Part shown: positions 3,845-54,445 of the stretch, piece after piece
Numbering within the stretch: the stretch's first letter is position 1
Layout: each line of letters begins with the position of its first letter
From: a phage
Sequence record: PZ179880.1
Strand: one strand, 5' to 3'
DNA: 64,000 bases
Notes under the pieces: generated by a model
The model's input: the letters and a program-made list of their open reading frames with translations, nothing else
The model's database searches: none
What the model was told of the DNA's origin: nothing
Position numbers and translations under genes: made by a program

Positions 3845-3860
3845 TACGGTGCATTCTAAA

Positions 3861-3878
3861 GGCCTGTTTCGGCAGGCC
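3861..3878 (+). terminator. Hairpin terminator after gene 18
   Basis: GGCCTG-tttcgg-CAGGCC stem-loop after the gene 18 stop. Confidence 0.6.
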
Positions 3879-3879
3879 A

Positions 3880-3887
3880 TATAAATA
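3880..3887 (+). promoter_or_regulatory. T4-type late promoter (TATAAATA)
   Basis: Exact TATAAATA directly after the gene 18 terminator hairpin. Confidence 0.6.
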
Positions 3888-3938
3888 CACTATATCCTTA
3901 ATTCTTTAATTCTATATGCCCTAGGTTAAACATAGGGA

Positions 3939-3946
3939 TATAAATA
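3939..3946 (+). promoter_or_regulatory. T4-type late promoter for gene 19
   Basis: Exact TATAAATA 15 nt upstream of the gene 19 ATG. Confidence 0.7.
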
Positions 3947-3960
3947 CTACAGAGGCTAAT

Positions 3961-34358: not shown

Positions 34359-34387
34359 AACTTTGTGCAATCTTTGGAAAATAAAAA

Positions 34388-34407
34388 AGGACTCCCGAAG
34401 GAGTCCT
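34388..34407 (-). terminator. Rho-independent terminator after the 30.9-like gene
   Basis: AGGACTCC-CGAA-GGAGTCCT followed on the minus strand by TTTTTTATTTT. Confidence 0.8.
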
Positions 34408-34411
34408 CAAC

Positions 34412-34588
34412 TTATGCTTTCTGCTTACCAAAACGAGAAGCATCATCTCGAAGAACCGCACGTGCTCGGCGCATGATCTTCTCAACAGTTTGATTGATAC
34501 GAGAGTTCGACCCACGCTTGTAACCAGCGCGTTTAGAATCACCAACTTTCTTTTCAACTGCTTTCTTTGCTTTAGCTTGTTTTGCCAT
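34412..34588 (-). CDS. Small basic protein (T4 30.9 position)
   Basis: ORF track gives 72 aa; ATG at 34588 (MAKQAKAKKAVEKK...) gives 58 aa, Lys/Arg-rich; terminator hairpin immediately downstream. Confidence 0.6.
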   Translation of the reverse strand: MAKQAKAKKAVEKKVGDSKRAGYKRGSNSRINQTVEKIMRRARAVLRDDASRFGKQKA

Positions 34589-34746
34589 TATAAATTCTCT
34601 TTTAAATGAAAATGCAGGACTTATTGGCATTGCCTGCGAAAGCCCTCAAGGGGGTACTTAGGTTTTGAATATTTACCGACAGGATAACCATAAACCTCGT
34701 CAACATTCAAGAGGTACACCGTAAAACTGCCGGGGTCTTAAAACTA

Positions 34747-34766
34747 TAATGATTCGCAAATCATTA
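34747..34766. repeat. Perfect 20-nt hairpin palindrome in the rIII / 30.9 intergenic region
   Basis: taatgatt-cgca-aatcatta: 8-bp perfect inverted repeat with a 4-nt loop in an otherwise non-coding ~240-bp stretch. Confidence 0.6.
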
Positions 34767-34827
34767 ATCAGACAGTTCGACGGCTCCTCGATTTTAGCTC
34801 ACACTAAGGCAGTGAATCTCCAATAAA

Positions 34828-35076
34828 TTACTTCAGTGTTACCACAAAGTGACGAACTGCTTTTCGTGCAGCAGAAGCCAGAGGCTTAGCATACTTAAGT
34901 TCATCTTTTTCCTGGAGCTCAGCAGCTAATGCAGTTTGAGCAGGATTCAGATGTTTGAAATAACGCAGGATTTCAAGAGCTTCGGCTTCAACATCAATAG
35001 ATGCGCCATAGTTTTCGTGACCATTATTCCATGCGTTTCGTTGCAGTTCAAGAGCGTGTTGTAATTGTTTAATCAT
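34828..35076 (-). CDS. rIII: Lysis-inhibition accessory protein RIII
   Basis: 82-aa ORF immediately downstream of gene 31, the T4 rIII position and length. Confidence 0.75.
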   Translation of the reverse strand: MIKQLQHALELQRNAWNNGHENYGASIDVEAEALEILRYFKHLNPAQTALAAELQEKDELKYAKPLASAARKAVRHFVVTLK

Positions 35077-35223
35077 TTAAAAATTCTCGTTAGAGATTAA
35101 AACTCGGTAGTCACGTTCTTCTGAATTTCATCTTCTTTCGACAGATCTCTCAGTTGTAGACTACCACATAGAATTGTTCGGTTAACTTATTATTCCGACA
35201 CCCAATTCATATTATTATTTATA

Positions 35224-51171: not shown

Positions 51172-52080
51172 TTAAAGGTCATTCAAAAGGTCATCCAGGT
51201 CCGTGTCATCAGCACTAGATGAACTGTCAGAGCTTGAGCTCATAAAATCATCTTCAGTTTTTGTTTTGAAGTCATCAACATTGAATGCATCCAAATCATC
51301 AGCAACTTTATCAGCTTTCTTAGCGGCAGTTGCTGCGGCACCACCCATAGCAGCAGTTCCCATAACTTGACTGAACTTAGTGCTCAGTTCTTCAAACGAT
51401 TTGAATTTATCTTTAGAAGTCATTTCAGAAAGGTCAACCATTTGTTCGAACAGTTCTTTCTGGAAAGATTCATCATCAATGTTTGGAATCGCAGATTGAT
51501 TCAGGAATTTAGATTCGTCGTAGTTACTAAAACCAGAAACTTGTTTAACTTTCAGTACAAAGTTAGCACCTTCCCACGGACAAGTTACATCAACCGGAGT
51601 TTCACCCATTTCAACATCAACTGCAATCATTGCATTGATTTTATCCCAAATTTTCTTACCGAAACGGTATTTAAATACTTTACCTTCATTTTCTGGAGCA
51701 GCTGGGTCTTTTACTACAAGAATGTTAGCCCAGTAAGAAGTTTTACGTTTAACAAGACCATACTCTTTATTGTCAGTGTTGTACAAATCATTTTTACTGA
51801 TGTACTGACATACTGGACAAGAATCGTAATCACCGTGGGTAGATGAACAGTTTTCAATATACCATTTACCATTTTTCTTGAAACCGTGATTTACAAGAAT
51901 TGCGAATGGTGCTTGTTCATCATTTTTAGACGGAAGAAAACGAATTACTGCTTGACCGTTACCCGCATTATCGAGTTTCAGTTTCCACTCGCCTTTATCT
52001 TCAGAAGAAAAACCACCTTTATTTCCAGCCAGTTTAGCCATTTGTGCAGCGAGTTCAGCAGTAGATTTACGTTTAAACAT
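51172..52080 (-). CDS. 32: Single-stranded DNA-binding protein gp32
   Basis: 302-aa ORF; sequence matches recalled T4 gp32, including the acidic Ser/Asp-rich C-terminus; strong terminator downstream. Confidence 0.95.
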
Positions 52081-52179
52081 TTTTATTTCCTTTTTAATTT
52101 AATTAACAGTTGGTGCTATGACGATGTATGACCTCATAGCTGGTCAGTGAGATAATTATAATCTATTTATAATAAGCAA

Positions 52180-54341: not shown

Positions 54342-54403
54342 ATGAACCTCGTTCAATTAGTGAGATTTCTATTATATACTATCCAAATCTTAAAGTAAAC
54401 AAG

Positions 54404-54411
54404 TATAAATA
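54404..54411 (+). promoter_or_regulatory. T4-type late promoter for gene 34
   Basis: Exact TATAAATA ~35 nt upstream of the gene 34 ATG. Confidence 0.7.
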
Positions 54412-54445
54412 CTTATTATTGAAAACACAATAGGAGCCCGGGAGA

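Follow-up and report, generated by a model that had tools for sequence, protein, structure and literature searches.

A mosaic of structured RNA modules between rIII and gene 30.9 of T4-like phages

In phage T4, the untranslated leader of gene 32 contains an H-type pseudoknot, which a review of RNA-based control in this phage considers possibly the only viral pseudoknot to take part in translational autoregulation (PMC3014915). In the DNA studied here, a phage sequence of 64,000 nucleotides (record PZ179880.1) referred to below as the window, this element lies at about 52113-52149 on the minus strand (CACUGACCAGCUAUGAGGUCAUACAUCGUCAUAGC), upstream of gene 32 (51172-52080). Mosaics of intercistronic hairpins are also familiar from bacteria, where the REP and BIME elements of enterobacterial operons, simple palindromes present in hundreds of copies per genome, act as mRNA stabilisers or barriers. 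T4-type phages reportedly carry a class of units known as PeSL cassettes, said to have been described by Arbiol and colleagues in 2010, in which a promoter is combined with a simple stem-loop and repeated around the genome. T4 also has non-coding RNAs of its own, the species 1 and species 2 RNAs (rnaC and rnaD), and small pseudoknots in which a hairpin loop pairs downstream are found in the Pistol ribozyme and the preQ1-I riboswitch.

Although T4 serves as the reference phage in studies of post-transcriptional control, its annotation leaves the region between rIII and gene 30.9 blank. The equivalent gap in the T4 record, 244 nt long, bears no annotation at all, and in two carefully annotated relatives promoters and terminators are marked all around the gap and none within it. 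In the window, a T4-like (Tequatrovirus) segment in which 701 bases around the gap match 794 phage records, with T4 at 97%, the gap occupies 34589-34827 between two minus-strand genes. The upstream gene is rIII (34828-35076), which encodes a lysis-inhibition accessory protein, and the structured region starts at its stop codon. The downstream gene, 30.9 (34412-34588), is the sole gene served by the gap as a leader and encodes a very basic protein of 58 amino acids with the invariant motif SKRAGYKR-SN-RI; Gp30.9 has no Pfam family and no relative in the PDB, and its PHROG has no assigned function. A strong intrinsic terminator on the same strand (34387-34408; 9-bp stem, UUCG loop and U-run), annotated as such in relatives, closes the rIII-30.9 unit, so that the minus-strand order is gene 31, rIII, the gap, 30.9, the terminator, and then an early-type promoter with gene 30.8. 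The first-pass annotation had placed a non-coding gap at exactly these coordinates, correctly as to both position and content. It is the longest ORF-free stretch of the window, in which only five such stretches reach 100 nt; others above that length are found at 3845-3960 and 54342-54445. The GC enrichment that had been remarked upon is present, although slight (39.7% in the gap against 36.5% in the window).

A scan for sigma-70 or T4 early promoters, with -35 and -10 hexamers spaced by 16-18 nt, gave no site in 34589-34827 on either strand. The gap also has no MotA box (WWTGCTTYA) 11-13 nt from a TANNNT element and no late promoter TATAAATA, which lies in the spacer between gene 31 and rIII. 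The promoters for the downstream small genes that had been envisaged here are thus not borne out. Since no promoter consensus lies inside the gap and the strong terminator comes only after 30.9, the gap is probably read within the rIII-30.9 transcript. The expression of rIII and 30.9 is said to have been the subject of a study by Driukas and Nivinskas in Biologija in 2003. One passage of a more recent paper credits rIII with early, middle and late promoters (PMC9409239). No other known class of RNA was recognised in the searches made: ARAGORN finds 0 tRNA genes in the window, E. coli contains no homologue of the gap, and Rfam 15 returns no match at the gathering score, nor at E up to 10 when the gap alone was searched (246 nt). 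The only nearby Rfam match, Atu_C8, is the terminator after 30.9. Rfam silence is weak evidence of novelty, as the known gene 32 leader pseudoknot is likewise unreported by the Rfam gathering scan.

The locus resembles each of the systems named above in part. Like the gene 32 leader, it carries an H-type pseudoknot (module C below) that is conserved among T-even phages and is situated in an untranslated T4 leader, upstream of a gene for a small protein of the nucleic-acid-binding type. Its sequence, however, is unrelated to that of the gene 32 leader, C is one of several domains, has a long, A-rich third loop and lies 70-250 nt away from the start codon, and binding of a protein to C is a proposal only. 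As with REP and BIME elements, the gap is an intercistronic mosaic of hairpin modules in varying combinations, but its modules are specific to the locus, have conserved loops, and include a pseudoknot and a multi-helix domain of about 145 nt. With the PeSL cassettes it has in common that short non-coding units are tied to modular shuffling in T4-type genomes, whereas the gap has no promoter consensus and no further copies of its modules occur within the window. The species 1 and 2 RNAs are also phage non-coding RNAs, and a copy of the array in phi92-like phages likewise lies in a tRNA cluster; nevertheless, rnaC and rnaD have no sequence similarity to the gap, and the T4 array lies between protein genes and not in the tRNA cluster. 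Finally, the C hairpin, whose loop pairs downstream with an A-rich linker after P1, recalls Pistol and preQ1-I, and one C variant contains CCACGUUAAAU, a string that is reported from pistol env25 as well. The likeness to Pistol (RF02679) is confined to the part made of P1 plus pseudoknot: there is no match to the model, no P2/P3 or G-U cleavage context, and no conserved P2 partner by inspection. Neither preQ1-I nor any other pseudoknot riboswitch is matched in Rfam, and the Shine-Dalgarno (SD) sequence stands 60-250 nt away and not within P2.

For comparison, spacers were taken from 40 viral contigs, 18 metagenome contigs, GenBank records and contigs found by pattern scans, and the blocks A, B, C, d, D', E, F and G were located in them by profile searches. 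Wherever rIII adjoins a full-length 30.9, the spacer measures 120-464 nt, while in more distant T4-likes other genes directly follow rIII. The spacers cannot be aligned end to end; they consist of conserved blocks in varying order, such that 58 distinct spacers fall into 18 architectures. The window and T4 share the order A-B-C-d-D', a Lutter-type spacer has A-B-E-C-d-D', and others include C-A-E-d-G, E-C-d-G, d-C-F and d-C. C and d are present in exactly one copy each in all 57 complete distinct spacers, whereas A, B, E, F and G are optional. Because each module is closed by its own stem, the optional ones can be gained, dropped or exchanged while the remainder stays undisturbed. Identity to the window amounts to 91-99% for B, 90-92% for C and 92-98% for d/D', compared with 69-86% for the DNA of rIII, 30.9, gene 31 and 30.8; in the relative L033, rIII is 73% identical, A 100% and C 96%. 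Such high identity of the modules probably reflects both very strong constraint and recent module exchange. Comparison of the homologous spacers establishes that the gap is RNA structure on the transcribed strand, a chain of domains that would fold independently of one another, and not spare DNA, and that selection, judged by the substitutions, maintains these domains in enterobacterial T4-like phages. The structured 5' UTR or small RNA that the first-pass annotation had listed among its options is supported, in that the whole gap is made up of RNA structures covarying on the gene strand, and the covariance analysis against relatives that it had recommended reveals compensatory changes in A, B and C.

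The feature that had drawn attention to the region, the inverted repeat TAATGATT-cgca-AATCATTA, occupies 34747-34766 without a mismatch. Read on the minus strand, it forms an apical helix (P4) with a UGCG tetraloop, the tip of module B. By itself the palindrome is without significance, because perfect 8-bp hairpins with loops of 3-8 nt are common in the window (27, against 11.5 ± 4.5 in dinucleotide shuffles); its stem, moreover, has a single G-C pair. It becomes significant only by the compensatory changes seen in relatives. In L063, UAAUGAUU/AAUCAUUA is replaced by UAUCGAUU/AAUCGAUA, and L019 has the same first strand opposite AAUCGGUA, with a U.G wobble; in these two phages A-U changes to U-A or U.G jointly with U-A to C-G (columns 32-47 and 33-46). 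Far from being lost among relatives, which had been named as an outcome that would speak against a function, the palindrome is thus preserved by paired substitutions, and the modules around it are conserved. It is dispensable all the same, since L033 retains the base of the rod but has a short loop in place of the upper two helices of B.

Module B as a whole (34703-34795, minus strand) is a rod-like stem-loop of 93 nt, delineated by covariation and folding, in which the palindrome forms part of a longer helix that contains invariant G.U pairs. It comprises helices P1 (4 bp), P2 (5 bp), P3 (8 bp) and P4 (8 bp) and an asymmetric internal loop, UGAU/UAGUUUUAAGACCCC. In the alignment of its 25 pairs, 98.4% of the cells are paired and five pairs have changed on both sides, compared with 1.6 ± 1.0 in shuffles (0 of 500 reached this value) and at most 1 in slid controls; the fold of the single sequence has an energy of -25.9 kcal/mol (z = -3.2 against shuffles). 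G.U pairs are invariant in all 16 sequences at columns 12-83 and 18-77, and a U.G pair occurs at 24-71 in 10 of 16. As the opposite strand would have C.A mismatches at the invariant positions, the structure must be that of the minus, i.e. gene, strand. The first-pass annotation was right in proposing a structured RNA and not in its promoter or operator; the palindrome it singled out is the tip of one of six elements, and the pseudoknot was overlooked.

Module A (34791-34827, minus strand) directly follows the rIII stop codon and consists of a small hairpin (34799-34815) and a subsequent GCUAAAA. The hairpin has a 4-bp stem, UCAC/GUGA, and a conserved loop, U-RCC-WW-AGU; 96.7% of its cells are paired, two of the four pairs have changed on both sides, and its covariation score is 0.59, compared with 0.30 in shuffles (0 of 500) and at most 0.19 in slid controls. 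UUCACUGCC and GCUAA, both in a segment of A (34790-34817), are also found in type I-F CRISPR repeats; the type I-F and type I-E repeats used here are sequences that we take to be the usual ones. The match, 19 of 28 positions, is at background level, as four other places in the window reach 18 of 28, and the covarying stem is in another register than the repeat hairpin, so A is not regarded as a mimic of such a repeat in the manner of the RNA anti-CRISPRs (PMC10651486). A comparison of element d with the type I-E repeat was rejected as well, for the best window places of that repeat are elsewhere (at most 17 of 29), and the GUUCCCC common to both is confined to T4-type variants of d.

Module C (34655-34708, core 34659-34701, minus strand) is an H-type pseudoknot supported by covariation. 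Its P1, GAC-AGG/CCU-GUC, contains a bulged G, and P2 is formed when the GGUU of the loop pairs with a downstream AACC. The A-rich third loop of 13-14 nt is conserved as CGKUAAAUAUYCAAAAC, and CGUUAAAUAUCCAAAAC is nearly invariant. Eight of the 13 pairs have changed on both sides (4 of 6 in P1 and 4 of 7 in P2), giving a covariation score of 0.325, compared with 0.127 in shuffles (0 of 500) and at most 0.147 in slid controls; MAFFT places two subfamilies off by one column, and the covariation holds regardless. In the window and T4, P2 is limited to 4 bp; in other lineages it extends to 6-8 bp, e.g., GUUGGUU/AACCAAC, CAAGGUU/AAUCUUG, UGUGAG/CUCACA and UAGUAGUU/AACUACUA. Matches to a 17-mer of C in other viral contigs have flanks unlike module C and look like chance.

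Element d (34639-34657, minus strand) is a mini-hairpin, GUACCCCC-UUGA-GGGCUUU, whose stem has 3-4 G-C pairs and whose conserved flanks are GUA and CUUG, and is positioned either after C or directly 3' of the rIII stop codon. Its covariation is weak, being limited to CCCU/AGGG versus CCUC/GAGG in L030, and the hairpin is deduced more from conservation than from covariation. It is followed by the terminal hairpin D' (34614-34637, minus strand), with a GCAGG/CCUGC stem, a conserved 14-nt loop, CAAUGCCAAUAAGU, and then a U-rich tract. In L018 and L033 the stem is wholly replaced by GAACUGG/CCAGUUC while the loop is kept, and in other lineages the slot is filled by module G, module F or another hairpin, the terminal hairpins there having stems of 6-7 bp and U-rich tails. 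Where an intrinsic terminator would have a G+C-rich stem, a short loop and a U-run, D' has a 5-bp stem, a 14-nt loop and AUUUUCAUUU; the terminator scan makes no call because the loop exceeds 8 nt. Next to the start codon, a further hairpin is predicted at 34594-34613 (minus strand; AUUUUC-AUUUAAAA-GAGAAU), in both the minimum-free-energy and the centroid fold, in which the SD of 30.9 (GAG) is paired with the U-rich tract. Elsewhere its equivalent is UCUCC-AAAA-UGGAAGA (UCUCC/GGAAGA), and pairing of the U-rich strand with the SD is predicted in all lineages. The end of the spacer is constant, consisting of a stable hairpin, a U-rich strand, the SD hairpin and the 30.9 start. Pairing of a 5' UUAUUGG with the D' loop CCAAUAA was considered and dropped, as it is not conserved in L014, L018, L033 or L010.

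The most elaborate domain, module E, is absent from the window. It is a fold of about 145 nt with seven helices, and is exemplified on the minus strand between B and C in L002 (Lutter; 816-952), and in L022 (1771-1907) and L026 (1868-2002). Nineteen of its 44 pairs covary, compared with 7.7 ± 1.9 in shuffles; its loop-loop helix is 100% paired, with 3 of 6 pairs covarying, and it contains an invariant 20-mer, GCUAACGGUGUGCAACAGAU, which is absent from 185,579 species genomes. E is known only from the rIII-30.9 spacer and has no Rfam match, and its complexity is typical of aptamers or ribozymes. The spacer of PG7, which contains E, has matches in 906 phage records; in 190 of these, at least 80% of its length is covered. 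The spacer upstream of rIII (35077-35223, minus strand), in addition to its late promoter, has two conserved hairpins and an SD-occluding hairpin. The second of its conserved hairpins in the window and T4 is module G (35106-35165, minus strand), which in other phages is the terminal hairpin before 30.9; its closing stem is GGUAGUC/GACUACC in the window and, with compensating changes, GGGAGC/GCUCCC elsewhere. In this spacer, too, relatives swap different inserts into one closing stem.

The array has also moved as a unit, into an unrelated phage group. In 17 records of phi92-like phages (Justusliebigvirus), tRNA-Gly and tRNA-Gln are separated by a T4-type A-B-C-d-D' cassette, which runs in the orientation of the tRNAs and shares 97-100% identity with alleles of the T4 group (L045 560-930, which is phi92; L043 1284-1636; L046, which is A150). 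At its end the 30.9 ATG is fused to the last 27 codons of rIII, and the 30.9 gene is absent. The cassette is flanked by a 13-nt direct repeat, TTTATTGGAGATT, which is identical to the first 13 nt of A. A relative with an empty site (L044, about 580-600) has one copy of the repeat, and in such relatives it corresponds to leader sequence plus the first 8 nt of tRNA-Gln; given its length, the identity between the start of A and this tRNA-Gln start is consistent with chance microhomology. The permuted order of the cassette fits a circular or tandemly duplicated fragment that was inserted via short-homology recombination. The A150 lineage carries a frameshift in the rIII-fragment ORF, yet it has kept its RNA modules intact and acquired module F.

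As to function, the reading that we prefer, with a probability of roughly 45%, is that the gap acts in cis as a structured intercistronic RNA that would serve as a barrier or stabiliser for the rIII message and would gate 30.9 through the binding of a protein to C and d. The hairpins near the 3' end would block 3' exonucleases and so protect the rIII message, with the long untranslated stretch being kept folded, whereas the terminal hairpin and the U-rich anti-SD strand would close the ribosome-binding site of 30.9 and permit translation only upon opening. We guess that the conserved unpaired nucleotides of C and d form the binding site of the protein that sets the switch. The most economical candidate would be the small basic Gp30.9 itself, again a guess, made by analogy with the gene 32 leader pseudoknot. 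Modules A, B, E, F and G may then be extra binding or stability domains. Were it so, the RNA would offer a concrete handle on gene 30.9.

A cis-acting role is favoured by the strict rIII-30.9 linkage, the invariant SD-occluding end and the lack of an own promoter. It is further supported by the gene-strand covariation in C, B, A and, in relatives, E, by the occurrence of C and d once per complete spacer across 18 architectures, by the fact that non-coding modules are more identical than the flanking genes, and by the precedent of the gene 32 leader pseudoknot in the same window. However, the phi92-type cassette keeps the RNA modules without 30.9, the supposed target, and the distance of C from the SD hairpin, up to 250 nt with A and E in between, is ill-suited to a simple switch. 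The type of pseudoknot does not track the type of 30.9 protein, the distant relative L035 has a short 30.9 homologue without the leader, and P2 of C is only 4 bp long in the window. Module identity, moreover, could partly reflect recent recombination instead of constraint.

Several of these difficulties would disappear if the modules worked in trans, an explanation that we hold to be a serious rival, though the less probable of the two. The array, or pieces cut from it, would be a stable RNA whose domains each bind a host or phage factor, e.g., as decoys for an RNA-binding protein, a nuclease or a defence sensor, and the rIII-30.9 junction would merely be the site that carries it. This would explain the phi92-type cassette without 30.9, which sits in a tRNA cluster in tRNA orientation at a site that is empty in relatives, as well as the variable distance and order of C relative to the platform of terminal and SD hairpins, and the shuffling of the modules in the manner of accessory genes. 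The frameshifted rIII fragment of A150 beside intact modules and an added F fits such a role, as does the gene 31-rIII spacer in drawing on the same module pool. The multi-helix fold of E, with its covarying loop-loop helix and invariant 20-mer, is typical of RNAs that have a specific partner. On the other hand, the modules were never found away from rIII-30.9 outside phi92-like phages, there is neither an own promoter nor a convincing terminator, the gap is unlike the T4 species 1 and 2 RNAs, and it has no BLAST-length complementarity to E. coli. To our knowledge, the classical labelling of T4 small stable RNAs revealed only tRNAs and species 1 and 2, which also counts against an independent RNA. 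In a broader version, likewise no more than tentative, T4-likes may maintain an exchangeable toolkit of non-coding RNA domains (C, B, the kissing-loop E and others) that act in trans as protein or defence decoys, are traded between phages, and were captured into the phi92-like tRNA operon for expression. The swapping of modules and the jump into these operons suggest that exchange of RNA domains between phages can proceed much like that of accessory protein genes.

That the leader senses a ligand in the way of a riboswitch, with C (and E) as the aptamer controlling 30.9 through the terminal and SD hairpins, appears unlikely. The pseudoknot of C, its A-rich third loop and its conserved unpaired bases do recall small aptamers such as preQ1-I, and C is invariably found in front of a single gene, together with a hairpin that occludes the SD. 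Nevertheless, the 246-nt search gave no Rfam aptamer family at E up to 10, and nothing links 30.9 to metabolism. C, d and the platform come in varying order with other domains between them, so that mutually exclusive pairings involving the platform are lacking. The lone alternative helix found, GGGCUU/AAGUCC, is not conserved in L014, L018, L033 or L010.

Less likely still is a neutral origin, in which selfish or hitch-hiking hairpins without function for the phage would have accumulated as a mosaic in a recombination hot spot. The mosaic architectures, the identical modules in otherwise diverged phages and the capture of the cassette through a 13-nt microhomology are what such a process would leave behind, but compensatory substitutions in A, B, C and E together with conserved loops, in phages whose proteins are 50-75% identical, demand selection on the fold, and no complete spacer lacks C or d. 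Last, an element that acts as DNA (a promoter or an operator palindrome) or a set of small protein genes, suggested by the perfect palindrome and by hypothetical CDSs that some have annotated in the gap, is very improbable. None of the promoter consensus types (sigma-70, MotA, late) is present, the palindrome shows covariation that includes wobble pairs (U.G in L019) and is deleted in L033, and even close relatives differ by indels and stops that disrupt the ORFs.

The coding potential of the gap deserves a further word, since some annotators have placed hypothetical CDSs on this RNA. The first-pass annotation saw no convincing ORF, and relatives agree: the candidate ORFs of 25-34 amino acids are disrupted by 1-nt indels between the window and T4, one has a stop at codon 4 in L029, and one is absent in L021. 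Across relatives and on both strands, every candidate is interrupted by stop codons or by indels of 1-2 nt. An upstream start that would give a 'long 30.9' is not tenable either, its ATG being ACG in L010. For annotation practice, this means that 'hypothetical protein' genes on the gap RNA are spurious.

Full-text literature searches found no description of the gap RNA, and the 2010 review of T4 RNA control, which mentions neither rIII nor 30.9, does not contain it (PMC3014915). A catalogue published in 2023, which lists about 10,000 candidate viral RNAs, does not name T4-likes in its text, although they may be listed in its supplement (PMC10690425). Apparently, then, the gap holds a real set of structured RNA families that are undescribed. 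If this is true, T4 and hundreds of sequenced relatives carry several such families beside rIII, among them a second T-even pseudoknot and, in relatives, the complex 145-nt fold.

Two minor observations concern sequences that recur between elements. The motif AAG(U)ACC(G)CCCC is present in the 3' internal loop of rod B and in the 5' half of d (34703-34795 and 34639-34657; also in the L019 spacer), and B has ACGGUGU in common with E, so that both motifs may serve in recognition. A universal loop motif (UAAGNCC, ACGGUGU) was considered and not adopted, as it recurs without being present throughout. In the distant T4-like L035 (1700-2330), a 30.9 homologue of 44 amino acids begins 12 nt after rIII without a structured spacer, and the next small gene is flanked by two near-identical repeats of a terminator plus an early promoter (AAGGAGACTTCGGTCTCCTTTTTTG...GTNTTTAC), an arrangement that is PeSL-like.
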